Origin: Rhodospirillales bacterium
GTDB lineage: Bacteria; Pseudomonadota; Alphaproteobacteria; Rhodospirillales; JASLQF01
Assembly (NCBI GenBank): GCA_030744625.1
Contig: JASLQF010000008.1
Span: 5,168 to 69,167 of the forward strand
Reading direction: 5' to 3'
DNA: 64,000 bases
A program made the position numbers and the translations under genes. Below, piece after piece: positions 3,402-35,038 of this stretch; the stretch's first letter is position 1, and the number at the start of each line of letters is the position of its first letter. Under the pieces are notes generated by a model. It was given only the letters and a program-made list of their open reading frames with translations, was not told the origin of the DNA and searched no databases.

Positions 3402-4813
3402 GCCGCCCTCCTTTCAGCCATGCGCCGCGCCACGAAGTCGCCGACGGCGCCGAGGTCGTTGGGCAGCACCTCGCACCGTTCAGGGCGCCCTTGCAGGTCG
3501 GCCAGGCGCGGCGGCAGGGCGGGGCGGGCGCCGGTTGCCGCCTCCACGGCGTCGGGAAACTTCGCCGGGTGCGCGGTGGCGATGCACACCAGCGCCGCGC
3601 CGCCAAAGCCTTCGTCGCCGCGGCAGGCCTCGCCGGCGGCGATGCCGACGGCGGTATGGGGATCGACGACAACGCCCGTCGTCTCGTGAATTCGGCGCAT
3701 GGCGGCCGTGGTGCCCGCGTCGTCGAGGCGGTGGCCGGCGAAGACCTTGCGGATGCGCCGCCAGCGCGCCTTGCCGAAATCGGCGCGGCCGTCGCAGCGC
3801 AAGCGCTCCATAGCCCTGACGAGGGCGGCGCCCTTGCCCCCGTAAACGTCGAAGAGCAGGCGTTCGAAGTTGCTGGCGATCTGGATGTCCATGGCCGGGC
3901 TCAGGGTCGCCGCCACCGGCCGCGTCTCCATGGCGCCGCTTTCCATGAAACGCGTCAGGATGTCGTTGGCGTTGGAGCCGATGGCGAGGCGCCTCACGCC
4001 CAACCCCATCTTGCGCGCCGCGTAAGCCGCGTAGACGTTGCCGAAGTTGCCGGTGGGCACGGCGAAGGCAAGACGCCGGTCGGGCGCGCCGAGGGCCACG
4101 GCGGCGGCGAAGTAATAGACCGTTTGCGCCATGATGCGCGCCCAGTTGATGGAATTCACCGCCGAGAAGTTGTAACGGCGGCTGAGGGCGGCGTCGTTGA
4201 ACATGGCCTTGGCCAGGTCCTGGCAGTCGTCGAAGGTGCCCTCGATGGCGGCGTTGTGGACGTTATCCGAGAGCACGGTGGTCATCTGGCGGCGCTGCAC
4301 CTCGGAGATGCGGTCCTTGGGGTGCAGCATGAAGATGTCGATGGCCTCGCGGTCGCGGCAGGCCTCGATGGCCGCCGAGCCGGTGTCGCCGGAGGTGGCG
4401 CCGATGATGGTCACGCGCTGGCCGCGGCGCGCCAGCACGTGATCGAAGAGGCGCCCGACGAGCTGCAGGGCGTAGTCCTTGAACGACAGGGTCGGCCCCT
4501 GGAAGAGCTCGAGCAGCCAGGTGTCGGCGCCGAGCTGGACGAGCGGCGCCACCGCCGGATGGTCGAAGGCGGCGTAGGCATCATCGACCATGGTCGCGAA
4601 ATCGTCGTCACCCACGCACCCGCCGAGGAAAGGGGTCATGACGCGCCGCGCCAGCTCGGCGTAGGGGAGCCCGCGCAAGCCCCGGATGTCGGCGCGCGAG
4701 AAGCGCGGCCACGCCTCTGGCACGTAGAGGCCGCCGTCGGAGGCCAGGCCGGCGAGCAGCGCCTCGTCGAAGGGCAGTGCCGGTGCCTGGCCGCGGGTGC
4801 TGACGTAGTTCAC
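3398..4813 (-). CDS. thrC: Threonine synthase
   Basis: 471 aa; N-terminus MNYVSTRGQAPALPFDEALLAGLASDGGLYVPE and the PLP-lysine context SFKDYALQ. Confidence 0.95.
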   Translation of the reverse strand: MNYVSTRGQAPALPFDEALLAGLASDGGLYVPEAWPRFSRADIRGLRGLPYAELARRVMTPFLGGCVGDDDFATMVDDAYAAFDHPAVAPLVQLGADTWLLELFQGPTLSFKDYALQLVGRLFDHVLARRGQRVTIIGATSGDTGSAAIEACRDREAIDIFMLHPKDRISEVQRRQMTTVLSDNVHNAAIEGTFDDCQDLAKAMFNDAALSRRYNFSAVNSINWARIMAQTVYYFAAAVALGAPDRRLAFAVPTGNFGNVYAAYAARKMGLGVRRLAIGSNANDILTRFMESGAMETRPVAATLSPAMDIQIASNFERLLFDVYGGKGAALVRAMERLRCDGRADFGKARWRRIRKVFAGHRLDDAGTTAAMRRIHETTGVVVDPHTAVGIAAGEACRGDEGFGGAALVCIATAHPAKFPDAVEAATGARPALPPRLADLQGRPERCEVLPNDLGAVGDFVARRMAERRAA

Positions 4814-6024
4814 GGAATCATGTCCACTGACAGTCGGAAGGGCGGTAACCTATCACGACATCGCCGGCACGCAAGCGGACCATGATCAGGGGCGCCACGG
4901 AACTTTTAACGATGAGACGAAACGCGAGGCCGCACAACACGATGAAGGTCCCCGCCAAAGGAGGATCGGCTTGACTTTGTCGCGAAGCCGACGGCGCCGC
5001 CTCGTACTTTATGGCGTCCTCATTGTTTGCACCGAGCTGGCGGCACTGTTCTACGTGCGGCTCGCCGCCGGCTCCCCGGTGCCGCACCCGCCGCTTTATT
5101 CCCACGGTGCGTTCGCCGGCTTCGTGCTCGGGGTCCTGGTGTGGGGGTTCGAGCTGTACTTCCTGCGGAGCCGGTGGGGCGCACCCATCCGCCGCGCCCA
5201 CTTCCTGGTCGCCATGGTGGTCAAGGTGGTGATCCTGAGCGGCGTGGTCTTCGTCACGGTGCTCGTCGAACAGCAGGTGCTGCACGGCGGAGTGGGGGAG
5301 TTCCTGGCCCTGGATCAACCGTTCCTCAGGCTGTATCGCCTGTTTGGCTACGTTTTGTTCGTCGTCGTCGTGTTCAGCGCCGTCGTTTCGGTGGTGCGCA
5401 TCATCGGCGCTCGCGTTCTCGGCAACTTTATCCTCGGGCGCTATCACCGGCCGGTCAGTGAGGGGCGAATCTTCATGTTCCTCGACCTGGTGGGCTCGAC
5501 GGCGCTGACCGAGCGCCTCGGCGACATCGGCGTGCAGACCATGATCACCCGGTTCTTCTTCGATATCACCGAGCCAATTCTGGAATGGGGCGGCGAGATC
5601 CACCGTTACGTGGGCGACCAGGTGGTCGTCACCTGGCCCTTGCGTGACGGTGCTCCGAACGCGCAAAGCGTGCAATGCTATTTCGCCATCCTCGATCGCG
5701 TGCGCGAACGCGCCGCCGCCTACGCACGGGACTTCGGCACCACGCCCGAGTTCCGCGTCGGTCTACACGGCGGGCCGGTGGTGGTCAGCGAATGCGGCGA
5801 CGCCAAGCAGGAGATCGTCTACTTCGGGGACACCGTTAACACCGCTGCGCGCATCGAGCAGGAATGCAAGCGCCTGGACCGGCCTTTCCTGGTCTCCGGC
5901 CCGCTTCTCGAACGCATGTCCCTGCCGCCCGAGTACGCGGTAGAGAGCCTGGGCGCCATCCGGCTCAGGGGCCGCGGACAAGACATTGAATTGTTCGCCA
6001 TAGAGCGCCCGGGCGCGGTGCCGC

Positions 6025-7521
<1,497 letters not shown>

Positions 7522-19936: not shown

Positions 19937-20165
19937 ATCAAGGCAGGTGTAAGAAGTCCAAAAATTTCCAGTTGATCTATATCAAGGAGGGCGCGCGGCT
20001 TGTAACTTAGCCTCGTACGGGCTGCGGAGATCGTCGTGATGCGGGGCCGCGTTGTATGTCCCTTCGGGGCCCAGCATTCCTGAAGTACAACTTTGGCGGC
20101 CCTTCTGGGTCGCTGCCTTTTTTTCCGAGGGCTCGCCGGGGCAATTAGGTGGACGGGGTCGGGTG

Positions 20166-20321
20166 ATGTCGAGTGTCACGAAACCAAAGCAGGACCAACA
20201 GTTCCGTTCCGAGCCGAAGCTCCGCAAATGCCTCAAATGCGGCAAGGAGTTCACCTCGAATCATCGCGGCGAGCGTATCTGTCCGAGGTGCAAGGCGAGC
20301 CAAGAATGGAAGATGTCATAA
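20166..20321 (+). CDS. Small zinc-ribbon-like protein (hypothetical, 51 aa)
   Basis: End of ORF 20052..20321, from MSSVTKPK; paired CxxC motifs (CLKCGKEF...CPRCKAS). Confidence 0.45.
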   Translation: MSSVTKPKQDQQFRSEPKLRKCLKCGKEFTSNHRGERICPRCKASQEWKMS

Positions 20322-20471
20322 TGACGGGCCATTCGGACAGCCCATAGCTGTCAAGGGCCCGCACCCGCCTTGACTCGAATTCGGGCGCGCCGCACCATCA
20401 TCGGGCACAGTTTGAGGGGTCATTTGGGGAATGTTGGATAAGAACGGCAGACGCGGCGGGGGGAACAAGAA

Positions 20472-21071
20472 ATGAGCAAAATGCTCCTCGCCATCATCGT
20501 CATCATCGTCTTCATGGTTCTCGGCATCATGATAAGAGTTTCACTTAAAAAGAAAGATACAGAACGATCCCGAGCGGCATCAGAGGCTAATAAGAGAAAG
20601 GAAAAAAGGGCTGCGCTATCAAAGTCGGTAAAGAAAATTCAATGGGAGGATCGGTTTGTCGTCGATGAGGGAGTTATCGATCGGGACCACAAATTCTTGT
20701 TCAACCTAATCAACGCTTTCAACGAGAACCTTTCCAAGTACCATTCGGCCGATCAGATGGCGCCTATTCTGGAGTCTTTGACAAAATATACTCAAACGCA
20801 TTTTCGGCGTGAGGAAAAGCTTCAACAGATTTCGGGCTTTTCCTTTCATGAATACCATAAGAAAGAACACATTGCTCTGATTGAGAAATTTAACAGCATG
20901 GTAAGGAAAGCTGAAAAGGCGAACGAAGACAATGTGACCGATGTTGCCATTGAAATCGGATCGTTTTTGCAGGAATGGCTAATTGAGCATGTGATAGATA
21001 ATGATCTTCTTATGAAGCCCTATGTGGACCGGATGCGCGAACACGCAGCGGGTATGGACAACCTGTCCTAA
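20472..21071 (+). CDS. Membrane-anchored hemerythrin-like metal-binding protein
   Basis: 199 aa; N-terminal TM, Lys-rich linker, hemerythrin ligand pattern (DRDHKFLF, HFRREE, HKKEH, WLIEHVIDND). Codon usage is AT-rich. Confidence 0.8.
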   Translation: MSKMLLAIIVIIVFMVLGIMIRVSLKKKDTERSRAASEANKRKEKRAALSKSVKKIQWEDRFVVDEGVIDRDHKFLFNLINAFNENLSKYHSADQMAPILESLTKYTQTHFRREEKLQQISGFSFHEYHKKEHIALIEKFNSMVRKAEKANEDNVTDVAIEIGSFLQEWLIEHVIDNDLLMKPYVDRMREHAAGMDNLS

Positions 21072-21168
21072 TGACCTGCCCTCACAAACGATACCACCTT
21101 TTTTTTGAGTTAGACTGAACACCGCTGGAGGGATGTGCCGACACGGCTGTAACTTCCATGTAGCGGAG

Positions 21169-21325
21169 GTCCGAATTTGATCAAAAGCGGTCGTCGATTA
21201 TCTGACAGCGAATGGTCCGCTATAGCCCCAGGAGCGAACATCGGTTTCGGACATGTCTGCTTTCAGGGGCAAAGCGGACGGAGATCAACGACCTTCAGAA
21301 CGTCCGCAGATAGCCAAGAACGGAC
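21169..21325 (+). repeat. REP-like hairpin repeat cluster B (4 modules)
   Basis: Modules start at 21169, 21215, 21255 and 21302 (spacing 46/40/47 bp). Each is GTC(C/T)G..N..(A/G)CGG(A/T)C-like. The last two match cluster A and C modules in order and orientation. Confidence 0.7.
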
Positions 21326-21452
21326 CTTCTCAAAGACGCCTATCCAATCTTACAACCATCAAGGCGGTTCGCGGTTCCCCGCTTCAGTGTTTGCGGCTAC
21401 TATTTAATCTGATCAATGGTCGACTATTTTTCTAGTCGATAAGGAACGATCA

Positions 21453-22874
21453 ATGCTGTCCTCTGGTAAGATCAGGCCTCTGGCTCTTGCCGTCATCGTA
21501 CTTGTCCTCGGCAGCATCATCGGATTGAGCACCATCGGGTTTCAAACGATAGGCTTACTGGGGATCGGCCACGAGCGTTGGGAGTCCTTCCAGAAAACGG
21601 CCGAGAGCAAGATTATTCTAATCTCAGAACTTCGCGGGGCGCTGGGCTACGGCGGCTTCATCCACAATTTCAAGAATCTGGTCCTGCGTAAGGACCCAAG
21701 CCGCATCCCCCTTGTCGAGGAAAACCTATTGCAGGCCTTTCAGGCCATCAGGACCTATAAACAGCTCGATCTTGTGCCGGGAGAAGCCGCGCCACTGGCC
21801 GTAATCAGTGAGACCCTGGAAACCTATCAGCACAACTTTATCCGCGTGAAGGGCCTCGTCAGTTTACAGGACATCACTCCGGACGCTATCGACGAAGTTG
21901 CGCAGGTAAGCGACGCCAAAGCCATTGCTGCCCTCGACGAACTCAATCGCCTGTGGATTGAGGAGGCGCGACGCAAGCGCATGGCGCTCTCGGAAAGCTT
22001 GGACAAAGGCACCCAGTTGATCACGGTCGGAGTCTTTGTGCTACCAGTCCTGTTCATCCTTGGTGGCGGCCTAATCTGGTTCATCTTCCGCTTAGTCAAG
22101 GAAATCACCCTGCGTGAGAAGCAAAGTCTCGAACTGGCTGCCTTGGCCGAGGATTTGCACATAGCACATGTCGAATTAGAGGCTATCATGAGTCAAAAGG
22201 ACAAAATGTTTTCGGTGATCGGCCACGACCTCCGGGGGCCTTTCACGCCGCTTCTCGGCTTTTCAAAAATGCTTGCCTCGGCGCCCGACAAGTTCCCCCC
22301 TGACAAGGTCGCCGAATACGCCGATGCCATCTACCGCAACGGCAAGCGTGTCCTTGACCTGCTCAACAACCTGCTCGAATGGGCCAGCTTGCAGACGGAT
22401 CGTATCCTTTTCGAGCCTGAGGACTTCGGCATGCGGGCCCTAGTAGGGGAAACCGTCGACCTACTGAACCCTGTGGCCGAGGAAAAGGGTATCGAAATTC
22501 TCAACGAGGTTCAGGAAATAAGCTTCCACGCCGACCGCAAAATGATCGACACGGTAATCCGCAATTTGGTCAACAATGCCCTCAAGTTCACCGCTGATGG
22601 CGGCCAAGTGACCATCTCCGCGGAAACGGTGGACGAACACGCTGTCCTGAGTATCGCCGATTCCGGTGTTGGTATTCCGCCCGACCGGCTGGAGACCCTG
22701 TTCAACATGAATGATGTTGATTCGACAGACGGCACTAGTGGCGAGAAAGGAACGGGTCTTGGCCTGCTGATCTGCAAGGAACTGGTCGAACGAAATGGTG
22801 GTTTAATTTCTGTCGAGAGCAAGCCCGGTGCCGGAACGGCGTTTCACATTACCCTGCCTAAGGCAACCAGCTAA
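21453..22874 (+). CDS. Orphan sensor histidine kinase
   Basis: 473 aa; two TM segments flanking a sensor region (LGYGGFIHNFKNLVLRKD), H-box FSVIGHDLRGPF, N-box NLVNNALKFT, G-boxes DSGVGIP and GTGLGL. No adjacent response regulator. Confidence 0.9.
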   Translation: MLSSGKIRPLALAVIVLVLGSIIGLSTIGFQTIGLLGIGHERWESFQKTAESKIILISELRGALGYGGFIHNFKNLVLRKDPSRIPLVEENLLQAFQAIRTYKQLDLVPGEAAPLAVISETLETYQHNFIRVKGLVSLQDITPDAIDEVAQVSDAKAIAALDELNRLWIEEARRKRMALSESLDKGTQLITVGVFVLPVLFILGGGLIWFIFRLVKEITLREKQSLELAALAEDLHIAHVELEAIMSQKDKMFSVIGHDLRGPFTPLLGFSKMLASAPDKFPPDKVAEYADAIYRNGKRVLDLLNNLLEWASLQTDRILFEPEDFGMRALVGETVDLLNPVAEEKGIEILNEVQEISFHADRKMIDTVIRNLVNNALKFTADGGQVTISAETVDEHAVLSIADSGVGIPPDRLETLFNMNDVDSTDGTSGEKGTGLGLLICKELVERNGGLISVESKPGAGTAFHITLPKATS

Positions 22875-22988
22875 TCACTTCTCAAAAGGGTCATGTGTGG
22901 ACGGCTCCCATTTGGCAAGGGTTGTTTTGACGTTGATGCAAAGTGGTCGGGTGCAGTCATGTGTCCGGCCTGTTGATGCGGTGCTCAT

Positions 22989-23103
22989 GACCGCTGGCCC
23001 TGGAGCAGACATAATTGTCAGCCCTGAAAAATGTCCGCTTTTGGGGGCAAAGCAGACGTAATTCAGGATGTGGCTGAAGGTCCGCTCCTAGCCAAAAGCG
23101 GAC
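22989..23103 (+). repeat. REP-like hairpin repeat cluster C (3 modules)
   Basis: Modules 22989-23010, 23033-23056 (gtccgcttttgggggcaaagcagac) and 23080-23103 (gtccgctcctagccaaaagcggac); start spacing 44/47 bp. Confidence 0.75.
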
Positions 23104-23286
23104 CAAGTCCGAGAAAGCCCACGGCAAGGTGCAAAAGGCAGGAGGTGCTTGATGCCCACACGTGGCGGGCTCTGCAAACCGCTTTGCAAACCAACGATCC
23201 CGGATTAAGCCGGGTCATAACGAATAGAGGCTGCGAGTCCGATATCAAGAACCCAACGAACTCGGGCGATCACGGACAATAAGGTA

Positions 23287-23508
23287 TCAAGGCGGATCGC
23301 AGATCCCGACCACCTGGACCGGCGGGCACGGCACGGAGCCGAAGGAGCAGAAGACGCAGCAGTCTCCCTCGTTGGGTTTGAGCAGGGAGCCGCATTCCTC
23401 GCATTCATAGAAGTAGATGCAGGCATCGAGCGGCATGGTTTCCGTCTTGCCGTGCCCGCACCGGGGACAGGTGATCTCGGAAAAACGATCGGCCTCGGCG
23501 AGTTCCAT
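23287..23508 (-). CDS. GDCCVxC domain protein (mer-locus associated small Cys-rich protein)
   Basis: Last 73 aa of ORF 23287..23610, from MELAEADRF; CPRCGH, CEECG and the signature GDCCVFCSFGSVPCPP. Confidence 0.8.
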   Translation of the reverse strand: MELAEADRFSEITCPRCGHGKTETMPLDACIYFYECEECGSLLKPNEGDCCVFCSFGSVPCPPVQVVGICDPP

Positions 23509-23510
23509 GG

Positions 23511-23771
23511 TCAGGCCCCGCGGCGCGAGCGGCGCACCATTGCGTAGCCGGTGATTGCCAGGAAGACCGCCAAGGCCGGAAGCAGCACGCAATCGAGCCA
23601 GCCCAGCCACGCCGAGAGGCCAACGGCGCCGAGCCCGATCACCAGGGCCGGCGTGAAACAGCAGATGCCGGTTATCGCCACGCCGATGATGCCGGTCTTG
23701 AGCAGCCCATCCGATTTCGCCGCGTCCTTTGCCGCGGTTGGCTCGCCTGTCGATTCCATCATGTCGGCCAT
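23511..23771 (-). CDS. merF: MerF-type mercury transport membrane protein
   Basis: ORF 23511..23804. ITGICCFTPALVIGLGAVGLSAWLGWLDCVLLPALAVF matches the MerF pattern including the vicinal CC. Start at 23771 fits the predicted promoter. Confidence 0.78.
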   Translation of the reverse strand: MADMMESTGEPTAAKDAAKSDGLLKTGIIGVAITGICCFTPALVIGLGAVGLSAWLGWLDCVLLPALAVFLAITGYAMVRRSRRGA

Positions 23772-23806
23772 GGGCTTACTTCCCCTTCCAAGAAGCGATA
23801 GCATCC

Positions 23807-23837
23807 ATCCTAAGACCTGTAGTAACTATAGGTTCAA
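23807..23837 (-). promoter_or_regulatory. MerR-type promoter/operator for merF: TTGAAC - 19 bp - TAGGAT with a 19-bp dyad in the spacer
   Basis: Minus strand: -35 at 23832-23837, -10 at 23807-23812. Dyad ACCTGTAGTAACTATAGGT at 23815-23833 has 16 of 18 arm positions symmetric. Confidence 0.6.
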
Positions 23838-23870
23838 GGGTTGTTTTTCACGTTGCCGCGAGGAAGCGAC

Positions 23871-24314
23871 ATGACCGATACGGTCCCATACTTGGCCATC
23901 GGCGCCCTGGCCAAGGCCACCGGCTGCAAGGTCGAGACCATCCGCTACTATGAGCGCATCGGCCTTCTGGCGCCGCCGGCGCGCAGCAGCGGCGGCCATC
24001 GCCACTACGGTGACGAGGCGTTGAAGCGCCTCAACTTCATCCGTCGGGCGCGTCGCCTCGGCTTCTCCCTGGACGTGGTGCGCGCGCTCCTGGCCATGGC
24101 CGACGGCGAGGAGCGGAATTGCTCCAAGGTCGAAAGGATCGCGGCGGCGCACCTGGACGACGTACACGCCAAGATCGCCGATCTGGAGCGCATGGAATCG
24201 GTCCTTGCCGCCATGGTCGCCGAGTGCGCGGGGGGCACCACGCCTGAGTGCCCGGTCATCGAGGCCCTTTACGACAGCGGGCCGGCCGGGGCCGGGCGCC
24301 ATGCCGACGCCTAG
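23871..24314 (+). CDS. MerR family metal-responsive transcriptional regulator
   Basis: ORF 23841..24314; HTH IGALAKATGCKVETIRYYERIGLL; Cys in NCSKV and in AECAGGTTPEC. Divergent from merF. Confidence 0.85.
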   Translation: MTDTVPYLAIGALAKATGCKVETIRYYERIGLLAPPARSSGGHRHYGDEALKRLNFIRRARRLGFSLDVVRALLAMADGEERNCSKVERIAAAHLDDVHAKIADLERMESVLAAMVAECAGGTTPECPVIEALYDSGPAGAGRHADA

Positions 24315-28345: not shown

Positions 28346-28864
28346 GTGACAGATCGATCAAAGGGACGCCAAGAGCGCGCGGAAAATGGTGACGTCGGCC
28401 GGCGCGCCCTGATGACGCGGCTTGTCGGGCCGTTTGCATTGGCAATTCCCTTTTCAATCCTGGCAATGCGCCGCCCCGCTGCCGACGACGCGACAACAAT
28501 CAAATTAAACCCATCGGGAGGGACGCCAGCCGCCTTCATGGAGCAGGCCCGGCGCATGCGAAACCTGGCTCTCGAAACAGGCGACCAGGGGTATGGCGCG
28601 GTAATCGTCAAGGACGGGCGCATCGTCGGACAGGCGCCGAGCCGCGTTGTCGTTAATCGTGATCCTACCGCGCATGCGGAAATAGAAGCTATCCGCGATG
28701 CGGCGCGCAACTTGGGAACACGCGACCTCAGCGGCTGCGTGATGTATGGCACGTCGAGGGCCTGCCCGATGTGCGAGGCGGCGGCCTATTGGGCCAACCT
28801 CACGGGTATGCGTTTCGGATCATCTGTCTCCGACGCTGGAGAACCAAGATTGCGCCGTTGTTGA
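28346..28864 (+). CDS. CMP/dCMP-type zinc deaminase family protein with a Tat-like signal
   Basis: 172 aa; HAEIEAI and PCPMCEAA zinc motifs; N-terminus GRRALMTRLVGPFALAIPFSILA; GTG start. Confidence 0.82.
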   Translation: MTDRSKGRQERAENGDVGRRALMTRLVGPFALAIPFSILAMRRPAADDATTIKLNPSGGTPAAFMEQARRMRNLALETGDQGYGAVIVKDGRIVGQAPSRVVVNRDPTAHAEIEAIRDAARNLGTRDLSGCVMYGTSRACPMCEAAAYWANLTGMRFGSSVSDAGEPRLRRC

Positions 28865-28939
28865 GGCGATTGTCCGCCGCCGGGCCGATGCCGCCGTCCG
28901 TTGATTGCCCGTATCGCGATTTCCGGGCATCATCCTGCA

Positions 28940-30226
28940 ATGGCTGAACGCAAATCCGTGGAGTCCCTGCTGGCGGCGGGTGGAGGCAACATCTCCGACC
29001 ACCTGCGGCTGCTCGCCGATCTCGGCCACGACTTCGCCGCTTCCCTCGACATCGAGGAGACCCTGAGAAGCGCCATCGAGCGCATCACCACGTACCTGGA
29101 TGCCGCCGGCGGGGCGCTGTTCATGCTCGAGGAAGGGGGCTCCACGCTGTGCTGCCACGCCTGCCATGGCGCCACCGAGATCACCGGGCTTACCTTGAGC
29201 AGCGACCAGGGCATCATCGGGCGCTGCGTGCAGACCGATTCGGGCGCCATCGTTCGCGACGCCGCCGATGATCCCGATTTCGACACCACCACCGACGAGC
29301 AGACCGGGTTCACCACCCTTTCCATCCTGTGCGCGCCCCTGAGCGTGCACGGCGAGAGGATCGGCGCCATCGAGCTGGTCAACAAGCTGAGCGAAGACGG
29401 GCAGTTCACCGAGGCCGACCTCGCCGTCCTCCAGGCCCTGAGTTCGGCGGCGGCGCTGGCCATCATCAACGCCCGCATGGCGGCCGAGCTGATGGAGCAG
29501 GAGCGCGTGCGCCGCGAACTCGAACTGGCCGCCGAGATCCAGCGCAGCCTCCTGCCCGAGGACCGCGGCGACGGCTTTCCCGTGCACGGGATCAACCGGC
29601 CGGCGCGCACGGTCTCGGGCGACTTCTACGACTATTTTGGGCTCGACGACGGGCGCATCTGCTTCAATCTCGGCGACGTGTCGGGCAAGGGCATGAACGC
29701 CGCCCTGCTCATGGCCAAGACGGCGAGCCTGTATCGCTGCCTCGGCAAGACCATTCATGAGCCGGGGCTCCTGTTGAGCAAGGTCAACGCGGAAATCTGC
29801 GAGACCGCGACGCGCGGCATGTTCGTCACCATGGTGGGCGGCATCTACGACCCGGCGGCGGGTGTCGTGCGCCTCGCCAACGCCGGACACGAGCCGCCGC
29901 TGCATCGCGCCCCGGACGGTTCTTTCGCGGCGCTCCAGGCCGAGGCGCCGCCGCTGGGCATCGTGCCGCCGGTGATGCCGGACGACGCCTATCCCGAAAC
30001 CGAACTGCACCTTGACGGGGGCGCCCTCTACGTTTTCACTGACGGGGTGACCGAAGGGTACCTGGACGATGGCACGACCCTCGAGGTGGAGGGCCTCAAG
30101 GCGCTGCTCGACGAGGTCCGGGACCGCGGCCTGAGGGAGCGCTTGGCGGCCGTCGTCTCCCGGCTCGACCCGGGAGACGCGCCCTTGCGCGACGACGTGA
30201 CGATATTGGCCATAGACGATGCATGA
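28940..30226 (+). CDS. GAF domain-containing PP2C (SpoIIE/RsbU-type) serine phosphatase
   Basis: ORF 28901..30226; N-terminal GAF region, C-terminal PP2C motifs (VSGDFYDYF, GDVSGKGMNAAL, TDGVTE). Confidence 0.85.
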   Translation: MAERKSVESLLAAGGGNISDHLRLLADLGHDFAASLDIEETLRSAIERITTYLDAAGGALFMLEEGGSTLCCHACHGATEITGLTLSSDQGIIGRCVQTDSGAIVRDAADDPDFDTTTDEQTGFTTLSILCAPLSVHGERIGAIELVNKLSEDGQFTEADLAVLQALSSAAALAIINARMAAELMEQERVRRELELAAEIQRSLLPEDRGDGFPVHGINRPARTVSGDFYDYFGLDDGRICFNLGDVSGKGMNAALLMAKTASLYRCLGKTIHEPGLLLSKVNAEICETATRGMFVTMVGGIYDPAAGVVRLANAGHEPPLHRAPDGSFAALQAEAPPLGIVPPVMPDDAYPETELHLDGGALYVFTDGVTEGYLDDGTTLEVEGLKALLDEVRDRGLRERLAAVVSRLDPGDAPLRDDVTILAIDDA

Positions 30227-30680
30227 GGCGCGCCCGCAATTGAAAACACAGCACCCCGATGAAGCCGACGGAGAGGTCCTGGTGGCCTTGCGCGGCCCGG
30301 CCCGGGCGGAGCGCTTGAAGGACATCCGCGCCGCCGTCGGCGAAGCGGCCTTGAGGTGCGGCTGCGCGGAAGAAGTGGCCCAGGACATCGTCCTCGCCGT
30401 CGACGAGGCCTGCCAGAACGTCATCCGCCACGCCTATGGCGGGGCACCCGGAGGAGAAATGATCGTCCAGGTGCGGCGCACCGGCGACGGCATGGAAGTG
30501 TCGCTGACGGATTTCGCCGAGACCGTCGATCCCGCCACCATCAAGCCGCGTTCCCTGGACGACGTGCGCCCGGGCGGGCTGGGCACTCATTTCATCAACC
30601 AGATCATGGACGAGGTGCAATATCTGGTGCCCCCCGGGGGACGCGGCAACCAGCTCAGAATGGTCAAACGGATTGCGTGA
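30219..30680 (+). CDS. RsbW-like anti-sigma-type serine kinase (HATPase_c_2)
   Basis: 153 aa; EACQNVIRHAY N-box and GGLGTHFINQIMDEV G-box; 8-bp overlap with the phosphatase gene. Confidence 0.8.
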   Translation: MHEARPQLKTQHPDEADGEVLVALRGPARAERLKDIRAAVGEAALRCGCAEEVAQDIVLAVDEACQNVIRHAYGGAPGGEMIVQVRRTGDGMEVSLTDFAETVDPATIKPRSLDDVRPGGLGTHFINQIMDEVQYLVPPGGRGNQLRMVKRIA

Positions 30681-30689
30681 GATATTCCC

Positions 30690-31022
30690 ATGAACCATGA
30701 AGTCACCGAAGAAGGAAAGGCGATCGTCGTCGCTCTCGAGGGGGACGTGGACCTCTCCAGCTCGCCGGACGCGCGCAAGATCCTTCTCGAATGCGTGCGC
30801 AAGGGCCGTCCCGTCATCGTCGACATGGCGGGCGTCTCCTACATCGACAGTTCCGGCGTCGCCTCCCTGGTCGAGTCCTTGCAGGGCGCGCGCAAGGCGG
30901 GCTGTGAATTCGCCCTCGCCGCGATCAGCGAACCGGCCCTTCGGGTGCTGCATCTGGCCAGGCTGGATACGGTCTTCACCATCCATGAGAGCCGCGAGGC
31001 CGCCCTCGCCGAACTGGGCTGA
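30690..31022 (+). CDS. STAS domain protein (anti-sigma-factor-antagonist fold)
   Basis: 110 aa; phospho-serine context VSYIDSSGVASLV. Confidence 0.85.
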   Translation: MNHEVTEEGKAIVVALEGDVDLSSSPDARKILLECVRKGRPVIVDMAGVSYIDSSGVASLVESLQGARKAGCEFALAAISEPALRVLHLARLDTVFTIHESREAALAELG

Positions 31023-31033
31023 CGGGGAGCCCC

Positions 31034-31849
31034 ATGGCATCGACGCAATCCGGCAACGCCGCCGCCCACTTCGCCGAACGGGTGGGCCGCGCCTGGCTGG
31101 CGGGGCTGGCGGGGCTCGGCTATTGCGGGAGCCTGGTGGTCGAGAGCCTGTACTGGCTTTTCCTCGGGCCTCGCGTCAAGCAGACCGTGCGCGTCGGTGC
31201 CGTCTTCGCGCAGATGATGGAGATCGGCATCGGCGCCATTCCCATCGTGGCGCTGCTGGGCGCCGCCATCGGCGCCATGCTGGCCATCCAGGGTATCTAC
31301 AGCCTCAGCATCTTCGGTGCCGAATCGCGGGTCGTCTTCGGCATCGCGCTATCCATGACGCGCGAGTTCGCGCCCCTGATCACCGGCATCCTGGTGGCCG
31401 GCCGCTCGGGCTCGGCCCTGGCGGCACGGCTCGGCATCATGACCATCAACCAGGAGATCGACGCCCTCACCGTCATGGGCATCAACCCGGTGCGCTACCT
31501 GGTGGTGCCGGCCTTCATCGCCCTCGTCGTCATGGTGCCGGCCCTGACCTTCCTCAGCAACGTCGTCGGACTGTGGGCCGGCGGCCTTTACGTCGGGATC
31601 GAGCTCGACATGAGCATGGCCGCCTATGTCGATCAGACCATCGAAACGTTGTCCGTGGACGACCTCATGCACGGCATTTGGAAGAGCCTGATCTTTGCCG
31701 TCCTCATCACGGTCATCGGGGTCGCCAACGGCGCCTCGGTCACCGGCGGCGCCGAGGGGGTGGGCCGGGTGACGACGCGGGCGGTGGTGCAGTCGATCAT
31801 GGCGATCGTGGTCACCGACATGATCTTTGCCTTCGTGGCGACGCGCTGA
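31034..31849 (+). CDS. mlaE: MlaE family ABC transporter permease
   Basis: 271 aa; typical MlaE/Ttg2B pattern (REFAPLITGILVAGRSGSALAA, INPVRYLVVP). Confidence 0.9.
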   Translation: MASTQSGNAAAHFAERVGRAWLAGLAGLGYCGSLVVESLYWLFLGPRVKQTVRVGAVFAQMMEIGIGAIPIVALLGAAIGAMLAIQGIYSLSIFGAESRVVFGIALSMTREFAPLITGILVAGRSGSALAARLGIMTINQEIDALTVMGINPVRYLVVPAFIALVVMVPALTFLSNVVGLWAGGLYVGIELDMSMAAYVDQTIETLSVDDLMHGIWKSLIFAVLITVIGVANGASVTGGAEGVGRVTTRAVVQSIMAIVVTDMIFAFVATR

Positions 31850-31851
31850 CC

Positions 31852-32688
31852 ATGGATACATCCCCGGAACCCGCTGAAAGCGTCAAGGTGCTCGAGGTCG
31901 AGAACCTGGTCGCCCAATACGGCGAACGCATCATCCTCGATGGCGTCAGCCTCGACGTCCACGAGGGCGAGATCATGATCATCATGGGGGGCAGCGGGTC
32001 GGGCAAGAGCACGCTTTTGCGCCACCTCATGGGCCTCGAGCGGCGCGCATCCGGTACCATCAGGATGCTGGGCCAGGACACGGCCGCCTTGACCGGCCAA
32101 GAGAAGCTGGAACTGCACAAAAGGATCGGCGTCGCCTTCCAGGGCGGCGCGCTGTTCTCCTCGATGACGGTGGGCGAGAACATCATGCTGCCGCTCCAAG
32201 AGCACACCGACCTCGACCTGCGGACCATGGAGATCATGGCCCGCATGAAGCTCGAGGTGGTGGACCTCGCCGGTTTCGAGGACCTCATGCCGTCCGAGCT
32301 CTCGGGTGGCATGATCAAGCGCGCCGCCTTTGCCCGCGCCATCGTCATGGACCCCAAGATCCTGTTCTGCGACGAGCCCTCGGCCGGTTTGGACCCGGTC
32401 GTCGCTTCGGCGCTCGACGACCTCATCCTGCGCATGCGCGACGCGCTCGGCATGAGCATCGTCGTGGTCACCCACGAGCTCGACAGCGCCTTCAAGATCG
32501 CCGACCGCATGACCGTGCTCGACGCGGGTAGGATCCTGTTCATCGGCACGCCGGACGAACTGCGCGCCGAGCAAAGCGAGCGCATTCAGAACCTGCTCCA
32601 CCGACGCACCGAGGAAGAGACCGGCGATCCGGAAGAGTACCTGCGCCGCCTGTTGGGCGAGAGGCTGGATAAGGAAGGGCACCCATGA
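31852..32688 (+). CDS. mlaF: MlaF-like ABC transporter ATP-binding protein
   Basis: C-terminal 278 aa of ORF 30697..32688, from MDTSPEPAES; Walker A GGSGSGKST, signature LSGGMIKR, Walker B ILFCDEP. Confidence 0.9.
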   Translation: MDTSPEPAESVKVLEVENLVAQYGERIILDGVSLDVHEGEIMIIMGGSGSGKSTLLRHLMGLERRASGTIRMLGQDTAALTGQEKLELHKRIGVAFQGGALFSSMTVGENIMLPLQEHTDLDLRTMEIMARMKLEVVDLAGFEDLMPSELSGGMIKRAAFARAIVMDPKILFCDEPSAGLDPVVASALDDLILRMRDALGMSIVVVTHELDSAFKIADRMTVLDAGRILFIGTPDELRAEQSERIQNLLHRRTEEETGDPEEYLRRLLGERLDKEGHP

Positions 32689-33680
32689 AAAGCAGCCGCG
32701 TCAACTACGTCGTCGTCGGCGCCTTCGTCCTCGCCGTCCTCGTCGGTCTGGTGGTGTCCGTGGCGTTGCTCACGGGCAGGACGGGGACCACCGATTCCTA
32801 CTACGCCACCTACCGGAACGTCACCGGCGTCAAGTTCGGCAGCCAGGTGCTCTACGAGGGCTTTCCCATCGGCCAGGTGGAGGAAGTGACGCCCGAACCC
32901 TGGAAGGGCGGCATGCGCTTCCGAGTCGATTTCAGCGTCGTCGAGGGCTGGCGCATTCCCGCCGACAGCGTTGCCGAGATCGCCGCCCCCGGATTGCTCG
33001 CCGCCATCACCATCAGCATCCGCGCCGGCGCGAGCGCCGCCGCCCTGGCCCCGGGCAACGAGTTGAAGGCGCGCGAGGCGTCCAACGTCTTCGCGGTCCT
33101 GTCCTCGGTGGCGAGCGACGTCACCGAACTTACCGAGGGCAGCCTCAAGCCACTCCTGACGAACCTCAACGAGACCGTCGGCACCATCGGCGGAATGATG
33201 GACGACGAGATCAAGACGTTGCTCGGACAAATCACCGAAATCGCCGCCGACGTCGCCGAGCGCACGCCGCGCATCGCCGACAAGATAGAGGCGGTGGCCG
33301 GCAAGCTGGACCGCTCGAGCGAGGAGATCGCGGAGCTCCTGAAGCCCGAAAACCGAAGGAAGCTCGAGACGTTTCTCGCCAACATGGACGAGACGGCGGG
33401 CAATTTTGCCAAGCTCACCGCCGACCTCGAGGAAACCCGTCTCAAATTGGACTCGCTGATCGCCTCGGTTGACGACATGATCATCGAGAACAAGGAAAGC
33501 CTTGGGAAGTCGCTCGACGACTTCGGCTACATAGCCGATTCGACGGCCCGCCATATAGACGCCGTCAACCAGAACCTGGAAGGGGCGGCCCGGAACATGT
33601 ATGAGTTCACGCGCCAGATCAGGCAGAACCCGGGCCTCCTGCTCGGGGGGCAGCCGCCGGCCGGCGAAGCGGCCCGCTAG
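32685..33680 (+). CDS. mlaD: MlaD/MCE family substrate-binding protein
   Basis: 331 aa; N-terminal TM, MCE domain (VTGVKFGSQVLYEGFPIGQV), long helical C-terminus; ATGA overlap with mlaF. Confidence 0.85.
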   Translation: MKSSRVNYVVVGAFVLAVLVGLVVSVALLTGRTGTTDSYYATYRNVTGVKFGSQVLYEGFPIGQVEEVTPEPWKGGMRFRVDFSVVEGWRIPADSVAEIAAPGLLAAITISIRAGASAAALAPGNELKAREASNVFAVLSSVASDVTELTEGSLKPLLTNLNETVGTIGGMMDDEIKTLLGQITEIAADVAERTPRIADKIEAVAGKLDRSSEEIAELLKPENRRKLETFLANMDETAGNFAKLTADLEETRLKLDSLIASVDDMIIENKESLGKSLDDFGYIADSTARHIDAVNQNLEGAARNMYEFTRQIRQNPGLLLGGQPPAGEAAR

Positions 33681-34312
33681 TGATGCGATCGGCCGGAGGA
33701 ATGCTGTTGAGAAAAGCGTCTTGGTCGTTGTTCCTGTTGCTGGTCCCGGCTCTCGGCGCGTGCGCGCAGCCGCCGGTGCCCCAGGACACGTTCTACCGGC
33801 TCGAGGTGGGGGCGCCGGAAAAGGTGCTCTCCGTCCCCCACCTCCAAGGGACGCTCGAGATCGAGCGCCTCTCAGCCGATGGCCTGACCGCCGGACGCCC
33901 CATCGTCTACAGCAGAAGCGACCGTCCCCGGGAGTTGCAGGAATACCATTACCACTTCTGGACCGAACCGCCGCCGGTCATGCTGCGCGATCAGCTGGTC
34001 GCCTACCTGCGCCGCGCCAAGGTGGCGTCCGCCATCGTTACACCGGAGATGCGCGTTGCCGTGGACTATGCGCTAACCGGAAAGATCAAGCGCCTGGAAA
34101 GGGTGATCGGCGCTTCGTCCGGGGCCGCGAAAGCCATCGTCGAGTTGGAACTGGGGGTGAGGCAGACGGCCGGCGAGCGGCTCCTGTTCCTCGACACCTA
34201 TCGTGTCGAGACGGCGGCCGCGGCCGATACCGTGAGCGCCGCGGTCGACGCCCTAAACGAGGGACTGAACCGCGTGTTCGCTCTTTTCGTGGCCGACTTG
34301 TCGAAGAATTGA
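33680..34312 (+). CDS. ABC-type transport auxiliary lipoprotein (PqiC/DUF330-like)
   Basis: 210 aa; lipobox LGAC; LTGKIKRLERV-type pattern of the ABC_trans_aux family. Confidence 0.72.
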   Translation: MMRSAGGMLLRKASWSLFLLLVPALGACAQPPVPQDTFYRLEVGAPEKVLSVPHLQGTLEIERLSADGLTAGRPIVYSRSDRPRELQEYHYHFWTEPPPVMLRDQLVAYLRRAKVASAIVTPEMRVAVDYALTGKIKRLERVIGASSGAAKAIVELELGVRQTAGERLLFLDTYRVETAAAADTVSAAVDALNEGLNRVFALFVADLSKN

Positions 34313-34402: not shown

Positions 34403-35038
34403 ATGACCGTCAAATCGACCAATATCACGCGCGTCCAGCATCGGATGGCGCGGGAATCCCGGTGGGCCGCCAACAGCCACAGCGGCGGGGTCCTCTGGTT
34501 GACCGGCCTTTCGGGGTCGGGAAAGTCGACCCTGGCCTTCGAGGTGGAAAAGCGGATGTTCGAAGAGGGGTATCAGGTTTACGTCCTCGACGGCGACAAC
34601 ATCCGCCACGGGTTGAGTTCCGATCTCGGCTTCTCGCCGGAGGACCGGGTGGAAAACATCCGCCGCGTCGGCGAGATCGCCGCCCTCTTCGCCGATGCCG
34701 GCTCCGTCGTCGTCACGGCCTTCATTTCCCCCTACCGCCGCGACCGCGAGCTGGCCCGACAAGCGGCGTCCGACCAGTTTCACGAGGTCTACCTGTCGGC
34801 CGGCCTCGATGTCTGCGAGGGGCGCGACCCCAAGGGTCTCTACAGGAAGGCGCGGCGCGGCGAAATCCCAGAGTTCACCGGCGTGTCGGCGCCCTACGAG
34901 GCGCCGGAGCACCCGGAACTGACCATCGACACCGGGGAGCTGACGGTCGAGGAAAGCATGCAGGTCCTGCTCGAGTACGTGGGCCGCGCCTTCGCCGGAC
35001 CAGGCCGGACGAAGGCGAGAGGTGCCCTCGGCGGCTAA
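34403..35038 (+). CDS. cysC: Adenylyl-sulfate (APS) kinase
   Basis: 211 aa; GLSGSGKSTLA P-loop, LDGDNIRHGL, FISPYR. Confidence 0.9.
   Translation: MTVKSTNITRVQHRMARESRWAANSHSGGVLWLTGLSGSGKSTLAFEVEKRMFEEGYQVYVLDGDNIRHGLSSDLGFSPEDRVENIRRVGEIAALFADAGSVVVTAFISPYRRDRELARQAASDQFHEVYLSAGLDVCEGRDPKGLYRKARRGEIPEFTGVSAPYEAPEHPELTIDTGELTVEESMQVLLEYVGRAFAGPGRTKARGALGG

Follow-up and report, generated by a model that had tools for sequence, protein, structure and literature searches.

A 64-kb stretch of DNA from a Rhodospirillales bacterium (hereafter the window, meaning all 64,000 nucleotides analysed) carries on its + strand, at 28940-34312, seven consecutive genes in which the three parts of a partner-switching module, a GAF-PP2C serine phosphatase, an RsbW-type kinase and an RsbV-type STAS protein, stand directly before the four genes of a Mla-related transporter of the ATP-binding cassette (ABC) class. 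Recurrence of this cassette in many bacterial species makes direct on/off control of the transporter by the switch the most likely arrangement. We propose, with modest confidence, that the cassette works as a single functional unit whose transporter is gated directly by the phosphorylation state of the STAS protein: unphosphorylated STAS would be an MlaB-like partner of the ATPase MlaF, phosphorylation of its Ser54 would release it, and the GAF-PP2C would restore the partner upon sensing a ligand. Genes and domains were called from the list of open reading frames (ORFs) and from scans against the Pfam and NCBIfam families, which, together with a reading of the junctions in the sequence, bear out the seven + strand genes with the domains and junctions that a preliminary description of this DNA had assigned to them.

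A census of this neighbourhood across genomes, proposed in the preliminary description, revealed conservation far beyond the source genome. An alignment of 14 kinases, used to scan one genome per species (GTDB), matched 591 stretches, the best 80 loci were kept for the counts, and the cassette genes were located in the retained loci by tblastn with the seven window proteins. Among the 67 loci with sufficient DNA downstream, 65 have the whole series STAS-MlaE-MlaF-MCE-lipoprotein in this order, and a PP2C gene lies upstream of the kinase in 68/72 loci, with median gaps between successive cassette genes of -4 to 23 nucleotides in the related loci. Orthologues in the same order are found in dozens of species at 31-77% identity, under record titles that are alphaproteobacterial (Rhodospirillales, Thalassospiraceae, Hyphomicrobiales, Rhodobacterales, Sneathiellales, Acetobacterales, Magnetospirillum and Terasakiella pusilla DSM 6293, locus L084, a cultured strain carrying the cassette) or name Gammaproteobacteria, including Arenicellales, while several metagenome-assembled genomes (MAGs) are labelled Deltaproteobacteria or Myxococcales. 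For example, in a MAG labelled Gammaproteobacteria a kinase 53% identical to that of the window is followed by STAS-MlaE-MlaF-MCE-lipoprotein, and a lineage of low guanine-plus-cytosine (GC) content has a GAF-PP2C and a kinase-STAS fusion followed by an MlaE 33% identical to the window MlaE.

The flanks vary among contexts (cox genes, cbb3 oxidase genes or PhaC), including those of STAS homologues at 64-68% identity, which keep the same gene order between different flanks (cox genes; cbb3 oxidase genes). In the window itself they are unrelated to the cassette, with polyhydroxyalkanoate synthase and deaminase genes upstream and cysC downstream. Clustering of all flanking ORFs found no further neighbour whose recurrence exceeds about one third of the loci, which delimits the seven genes as the unit. 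The grouping is more than chance, and the seven genes are probably a self-contained cassette transcribed as one operon; scans for terminators and promoters returned nothing exceeding the shuffled background. We consider it refuted, with a negligible residual probability, that the arrangement is a fortuitous adjacency or an annotation artefact of unrelated small ORFs in a GC-rich genome: spurious ORFs are numerous in high-GC DNA, but all seven products match curated families strongly, third-codon-position GC is 0.82-0.92 across all seven frames, and the orthologues just described retain the order at identities down to 31%.

The STAS protein (30690-31022, +, 110 residues) matches Pfam STAS (1.3e-18) and the anti-sigma-factor antagonist family TIGR00377 (73 bits, above the cut-off of 53). 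The serine context YIDSSGVASLV, reported previously as that of a phosphorylatable STAS serine, holds on inspection: the predicted phosphorylatable Ser54 (30849-30851) falls, in alignments, on the serine of the DS[AT]G motif in TM1442 and Bacillus subtilis RsbV and on Thr52 of Escherichia coli MlaB, and YIDSSG is at least 98% conserved among 83 STAS orthologues. The AlphaFold2 model (predicted local distance difference test score, pLDDT, 94) has the five strands and four helices of the full SpoIIAA/RsbV fold, with helix alpha2 starting at Ser54, such that the protein has the conserved Ser/Thr at the start of helix alpha2 that is expected of a partner-switching STAS. A Foldseek search with this model returned TM1442 and RsbV at template-modelling (TM) scores of 0.86 and 0.84, and E. 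coli MlaB at rank 49-50 with TM 0.62-0.65; the minimal STAS fold of MlaB is not seen, the Ser/Thr position alone being common to both.

Evidence that a STAS module belongs to this type of transporter comes from six four-gene Mpc-like operons on plasmids (of Azospirillum, Ruegeria, Methylomagnum, Haematobacter, Azoarcus and Paracoccus) with which we compared the cassette. Their permease is long (354-391 residues) in 6/6 operons, with an N-terminal STAS domain by Pfam in 5 and a D-T-x-G-A motif in 6/6, and no kinase or PP2C gene lies beside any of the six; the cassette MlaE has a median length of 271 residues and never carries a STAS domain in the related loci. Since STAS is fused in the kinase-less operons and separate in the cassette whose MlaE lacks it, there is one STAS per transporter of this type, and it is either fused, with a threonine and no kinase, or free, with a serine and a kinase. 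Moreover, the free STAS gene lies directly upstream of mlaE, which is the domain order of the STAS-MlaE fusions, and a chain of fusions connects PP2C to kinase (51/72 loci), kinase to STAS (P0281/L098) and STAS to MlaE (Brucella MpcE, PMC12436622).

The ATPase provides a second point of contact with MlaB. A motif Y-x3-L-[LTIVM], typically in the form DP[DE]xYLxRL[TLM]G, is present in the C-terminal tail of 71/72 cassette MlaF proteins and missing from 5/5 MlaF proteins of the STAS-fused operons. In the window MlaF it reads YLRRLL (residues 263-268, at 32638-32655) and is spaced like Y261/L265/L266 of E. coli MlaF, a motif-level resemblance that requires the MAFFT alignment to be shifted by one residue before it matches E. 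coli. The C-terminal extension of E. coli MlaF inserts Tyr261, Leu265 and Leu266 between MlaB and the neighbouring MlaF in a "handshake", and Thr52, at the centre of the MlaF-MlaB interface, weakens binding when replaced in T52E; phosphoregulation of MlaB was posed as an open question, no kinase being known (Kolich et al. 2020, PMC7367683).

The two enzymes that would act on Ser54 carry the hallmarks of their families. The phosphatase (28940-30226, +, 428 residues, or 441 from an alternative TTG start at 28901), which would serve as the sensor or input module, matches Pfam SpoIIE at 1.6e-39 over profile positions 1-189 of 192 and GAF/GAF_2 at about 1e-16. Its PPM motifs SGDFYD (226), GDVSGKG (245), TDGVTE (367) and RDDVT (417), which hold the metal-binding aspartates typical of PP2C enzymes, are conserved in 59 phosphatase orthologues. 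The kinase (30219-30680, +, 153 residues) matches Pfam HATPase_c_2 (1.3e-31) and, at 58 bits, falls under the equivalog cut-off of 145 of NCBIfam RsbW; B. subtilis RsbW (6m36_A, 2e-10) is its best solved relative, and its N-box DEACQN (62) and G2 box PGGLG (118) are invariant in the 14-sequence alignment, as befits a GHKL kinase of the RsbW/SpoIIAB type. With PPM motifs, N-box, G2 box and the ABC motifs (see below) conserved, the window enzymes are predicted to be competent. That phosphatase and kinase are the products of separate genes, as first described, holds for the window and for 20 other loci, where the two genes often overlap; in most relatives (the 51/72 loci mentioned above) they are fused in-frame into one polypeptide of about 580 residues.

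The GAF domain offers a clue to the input. Its best solved relatives are 5w10, chains named as the PDE5, PDE10A and PDE2A phosphodiesterases, and an adenylate cyclase. At least 98% of the 59 orthologues share residues N148, F156 and D160, and at least 70% share K149; these four we take to belong, as its N, K, F and D, to NKFDE, the signature motif of cyclic-nucleotide GAF domains. Six loci (L001, at 4804-6156, L012, L013, L020, L081 and L087) have a class III adenylate/guanylate cyclase gene as the immediate upstream neighbour of GAF-PP2C, and the corresponding upstream gene in the window encodes a deaminase (28346-28864), not a cyclase. The relatives of the domain, its N/K/F/D residues and the upstream cyclase in six loci make a cyclic nucleotide the probable ligand, as a reasonable guess and no more.

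The four remaining genes encode the transporter, which is predicted to move lipids and to span the envelope. The MlaE-family permease (31034-31849, +, 271 residues) matches Pfam MlaE at 1.2e-68 over residues 58-267 and has no STAS domain at its N-terminus; its identity is 37-40% to the STAS-fused MlaE of the Azospirillum and Ruegeria plasmid operons and 33% to E. coli MlaE. The MlaF-like ATPase (31852-32688, +, 278 residues, with a C-terminal extension) is 46-47% identical to the MlaF of the same two Mpc-like operons and 41% identical to E. coli MlaF, and conserves Walker A, signature, Walker B and H-loop. Its best ATPase match in NCBIfam is MlaF (NF008809), at 191 bits and under the equivalog cut-off of 441, and among solved structures the protein is closest to 7d06_B (a chain named just "ABC transporter ATP-binding protein") and then to Pseudomonas aeruginosa and E. 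coli MlaF. An MlaE permease and an MlaF ATPase as in E. coli-type Mla are present, and since both fall under their NCBIfam equivalog cut-offs they are family members rather than orthologues of their E. coli counterparts. The MCE protein (32685-33680, +, 331 residues) has an N-terminal MlaD domain (Pfam, 1.5e-10, residues 37-114) followed by a region of about 200 residues with weak helical-family matches over 154-303, and scores 101 bits against TIGR00996 over 9-303 (cut-off 140). The PqiC-like auxiliary lipoprotein (33680-34312, +, 210 residues from GTG 33680 or 203 from ATG 33701) matches Pfam ABC_trans_aux (5.5e-12), and its translation reads as a signal peptide with the lipobox LGAC (Cys at 33761-33763).

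An E. coli MlaC query found no match in the window or in the related loci, and the E. coli set of short MlaD, MlaC and MlaA is not what the cassette encodes, given an MCE protein of 331 residues, no MlaC match and a PqiC-like partner (MlaA was not searched for). The family scans therefore confirm the parts of the MlaEFD/PqiC-type transporter that had been named for this locus, and the better label, judging from the sequences, is Mpc-type, after the Mla-Pqi chimeric transporter of Brucella (PMC12436622).

How these parts would work together can be laid out as follows. Unphosphorylated STAS would dock on MlaF at its helical subdomain, the site that MlaB uses in E. coli, the conserved C-terminal tail of MlaF would help to hold it there, and this docking would stabilise or activate the MlaF ATPase. 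The RsbW-type kinase would phosphorylate Ser54, at the position of MlaB Thr52 and hence the centre of the interface, the phosphoserine would release STAS, and transport would be shut down. GAF-PP2C would then remove the phosphate from Ser54, with the GAF ligand, probably a cyclic nucleotide, setting the activity of the phosphatase and thereby the fraction of active transporter. Three elements of this scheme are our inference: that STAS binds MlaF, which sign the regulation has and what the GAF ligand is. A bolder claim, which we offer tentatively as plausible and somewhat short of probable, is that this is a natural and widespread ABC transporter switched by a partner-switching phospho-relay, in which a cyclic-nucleotide-responsive GAF-PP2C and the kinase toggle Ser54 such that lipid traffic between membranes would be turned on and off within seconds without new gene expression.

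Several observations weigh against direct gating by the STAS protein. By sequence and predicted fold the window STAS is RsbV-like, not MlaB-like: it scores 20 bits against NCBIfam MlaB (NF033618, cut-off 90), phmmer matches it to E. coli and Acinetobacter baumannii MlaB at E ~0.2, to the STAS chain of P. aeruginosa 7ch8 at 0.002 and to TM1442 at 3e-13, and its model contains a fifth strand and a fourth helix, both missing from MlaB. The G1 box of the kinase is atypical (D98-F-A versus DxGxG), and five gammaproteobacterial MAG loci are without an adjacent PP2C. The PP2C-kinase fusion is also compatible with an anti-sigma role, for which Rv1364c of Mycobacterium tuberculosis is a precedent. Among the 150 nearest 50%-identity representatives of the STAS protein, no STAS-MlaE fusion was present in the eight multi-domain proteins run through Pfam. 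Rate covariation (59 cassettes; neighbour-joining topology; branch lengths per protein by non-negative least squares) gave background values for STAS-MlaF (-0.13) and STAS-MlaE (-0.07), in an analysis whose positive controls were weak: the expected partners scored 0.23 (PP2C-kinase), 0.25 (kinase-STAS), 0.18 (MlaE-MlaF) and 0.11 (MCE-lipoprotein). Finally, E. coli MlaB T52A does not function although it still binds MlaF, a complication for any simple on/off scheme (PMC7367683).

Some of these observations would fit an alternative, a classical partner switch with the kinase as effector: the RsbW-like protein would bind and inhibit MlaF (or MlaE), in the manner of an anti-sigma factor on its sigma factor, and unphosphorylated STAS would remove the kinase without ever touching the transporter. 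Similarity is highest, for kinase and STAS alike, to the B. subtilis RsbW and RsbV pair solved as a single complex (6m36), the STAS protein shows the complete RsbV fold and not the minimal one of MlaB, rate covariation ties it to the kinase and not to MlaF, and the conserved linkage fits equally well. Left unexplained, however, are the fusion of STAS to MlaE in the kinase-less sister transporters and the tail motif of the cassette MlaF, spaced like the MlaB-clamping tail of E. coli; a kinase tethered to a GAF-PP2C of about 430 residues in 51/72 loci would, moreover, be an awkward stoichiometric inhibitor of a membrane complex. In the partner-switching-like systems with the non-sigma outputs SypA, HsbA and SiaC, it is the STAS-like protein that is the output. 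We regard the kinase as an unlikely effector.

The other alternative to gating by STAS is that the triad controls a target encoded elsewhere, for example an unlinked sigma factor, a transcription factor or a second-messenger enzyme, and that the transporter is merely co-transcribed with it in one envelope or stress response. Sigma factors are the classical targets of Rsb-type modules, and the claim that none is linked to this cassette proved correct for what was searched: tblastn with E. coli FliA, RpoE and RpoS (E <= 1e-3) detected none in the 64-kb window and none in 83 related loci of about +-10 kb, a search that could miss a very divergent extracytoplasmic function (ECF) sigma factor, and the called genes of four independent cassette contexts include no Sigma70/sigma Pfam domain. 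An unlinked target would also agree with the view being limited to about +-10 kb around each locus, with STAS relatives of about 40% identity that stand alone without Mla genes, and with two degenerate clusters, the two exceptions to the 65/67 order, in which the triad is kept and the transporter partly lost. The first, L058 (8693-11692), retains the PP2C-kinase fusion, STAS and, of the transporter, MlaF only, and continues into a glycogen phosphorylase gene; the second, L062 (8748-11518, Magnetospirillum sp. UT-4), retains PP2C, kinase, STAS and, of the transporter, MlaE only. The L062 cluster is followed by genes whose translations resemble hydrogenase maturation proteins. Set against an unlinked target are an order that stays fixed in the other 65 loci, in several classes and between changing flanks, at spacings of a few nucleotides, the lack of any recurrent sigma factor or other regulator nearby, and a STAS gene that invariably adjoins mlaE in the same order as the domains of the STAS-MlaE fusions. 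The pattern of free versus fused STAS and the tail motif of MlaF would, furthermore, have to be coincidences. We hold a target encoded elsewhere to be rather unlikely, and return to direct gating by the STAS protein as the reading that we favour.

The relatives of the STAS protein delimit its family further. The lone P0381 STAS, at 40% identity and without Mla genes, suggests that the Mla-linked STAS clade ends roughly at 45-50% identity. The multi-domain relatives found were tandem STAS proteins, the kinase-STAS fusion and transporter-STAS fusions (TLC, one weak match to the major facilitator superfamily, MFS), and no protein among the 150 nearest representatives has a length that fits a STAS-MlaE fusion. 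A recent split of the free STAS from a fused MlaE was considered and rejected, because none of the nearest relatives checked is such a fusion; the free STAS is thus not simply a split-off fused domain. P0275, P0347 and P0364 (830-844 residues) combine a TLC ATP/ADP-transporter match, accompanied in P0275 by the weak MFS match, with a C-terminal STAS 46-55% identical to that of the window, and the RsbV-like STAS clade is thus also attached to another transporter class. Two tandem STAS genes precede mlaE in L001 (8001-8688), only in this lineage among the examined loci; the second was considered as a separate MlaB-like paralogue and rejected, being a recent tandem duplicate with a 96% identical protein. 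In P0314 (259 residues) the first ~85 residues are a cassette-type STAS and the remainder resembles the auxiliary lipoprotein (YHYW...), which looks like a deletion or misassembly that removed mlaEFD.

The gene junctions in the window are close, as the preliminary description had emphasised. Phosphatase and kinase genes share an 8-nucleotide overlap (ATGCATGA, 30219-30226), gaps of 9, 11 and 2 nucleotides separate kinase from STAS, STAS from MlaE and MlaE from MlaF, and an ATGA overlap at 32685-32688 joins MlaF to MCE, all read from the sequence. The tight packing stands for these; the last junction reads as a TAG/GTG overlap at 33680, but the gene callers of three public contigs identical to the window stretch used later in-frame starts for the lipoprotein (ATG 33701, 203 residues, on two of them and two codons further, 201 residues, on the third), and the MCE/lipoprotein junction may therefore be a gap of 20-26 nucleotides instead. 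Beyond the lipoprotein gene, after 90 nucleotides and on the same strand, lies cysC (adenosine 5'-phosphosulfate kinase; 34403-35038, +), and a cysC homologue is found downstream on the same strand in 25/83 related loci, mostly directly after the cassette at roughly +4.0 to +4.2 kb, counted from the start of the kinase gene. The cysC gene may be part of the cassette unit (providing 3'-phosphoadenosine 5'-phosphosulfate for a sulfated lipid?) or reflect the shared ancestry of related Rhodospirillales. Upstream of the cassette, the window has a GC content of 0.52-0.58 at 20001-24000, compared to 0.60-0.71 elsewhere, and next to this low-GC stretch (at ~23.8-26.3 kb) are encoded two MerR-type regulators, a MerF-like transporter, an MFS protein and a thioredoxin-like protein; this may be an acquired metal-resistance islet. 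In another locus, L004 (625-2821), a DarT and macrodomain gene pair lies between two fixQ copies in the cbb3 oxidase cluster upstream of the cassette, which we read as a DarTG-like toxin-antitoxin system.

The cassette gathers in one probable operon the parts that the question of MlaB phosphoregulation calls for: a STAS serine at the position of Thr52, a kinase, a ligand-sensing phosphatase and the transporter itself. Direct gating, if true, would make its STAS protein the phosphoregulated "MlaB" that Kolich et al. (2020) hypothesised and that was not found in E. coli, would bring membrane transport under partner switching in addition to sigma factors and a few enzymes, would constitute a new way of gating an ABC ATPase, and would possibly link cyclic-nucleotide signalling to envelope lipid homeostasis. 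With the kinase subfamily present in 591 stretches and a cultured strain carrying the cassette, the question of phosphoregulation is directly testable. What is already known comprises the component families, phospho-STAS modules with non-sigma outputs, the STAS partner of MlaF and the Mpc transporter. The earlier statement that no Mla-type transporter has been described under partner-switch control agrees with our full-text searches of the literature, which returned no report of a kinase/phosphatase/STAS module linked to a Mla, MCE or Mpc transporter, most subscription journals lying outside the full-text coverage.

Compared to known systems, the module resembles the RsbU-RsbV-RsbW-SigB and SpoIIE-SpoIIAA-SpoIIAB-SigF switches of B. 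subtilis in its PP2C phosphatase, GHKL serine kinase and DS[ST]G STAS protein, and differs from them in the order of kinase then STAS, in the transporter genes that occupy the place of the sigma gene and in its GAF input; for the sigma target that marks Rsb/SpoIIA systems, the tblastn search had no match in the window or in the 83 loci. Non-sigma modules of related design are Vibrio fischeri SypE/SypA, P. aeruginosa HsbR/HsbA and SiaABCD, and Anabaena HenR with its STAS-glycosyltransferase (PMC10120452, PMC8457831, PMC13555669). These share with the cassette a phospho-STAS(-like) output that acts on a non-transcriptional target, and often a kinase and phosphatase in one protein, whereas their targets are polysaccharide synthesis or diguanylate cyclases, and in the literature searched no control of an ABC or MCE transporter is reported for any of them.

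On the transporter side, E. coli MlaFEDB (Thong 2016; Kolich 2020, PMC7367683) is similar in encoding a free STAS protein with MlaE and MlaF, in the alignment of Ser54 with Thr52 and in the Y-x3-L-L spacing at the MlaF C-terminus. It differs in that its STAS subunit MlaB is minimal, lacking strand five and helix four, and has no known kinase, and in its short single-MCE MlaD (183 residues), MlaC and MlaA, in place of which the cassette has a long MCE protein and a PqiC-like outer-membrane partner, with no match to MlaC. The four-gene operon of Brucella abortus Mpc encodes MpcE, MpcF, MpcD (331 residues) and the PqiC-like MpcA, without MlaC, and the N-terminal STAS domain of the permease MpcE was equated with MlaB by the authors (EMBO J 2025, PMC12436622). 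The cassette contains this same four-gene unit, with an MlaE-like and an MlaF-like protein, a long MCE protein (331 residues in both) and a PqiC-like lipoprotein in the same order and without MlaC, and lacks the fused-STAS permease. The Mpc permease has the STAS as its N-terminal domain, and the Mpc operon is described without a kinase or phosphatase gene, whereas the cassette has a separate RsbV-type STAS protein with an invariant serine, together with its own kinase and GAF-PP2C.

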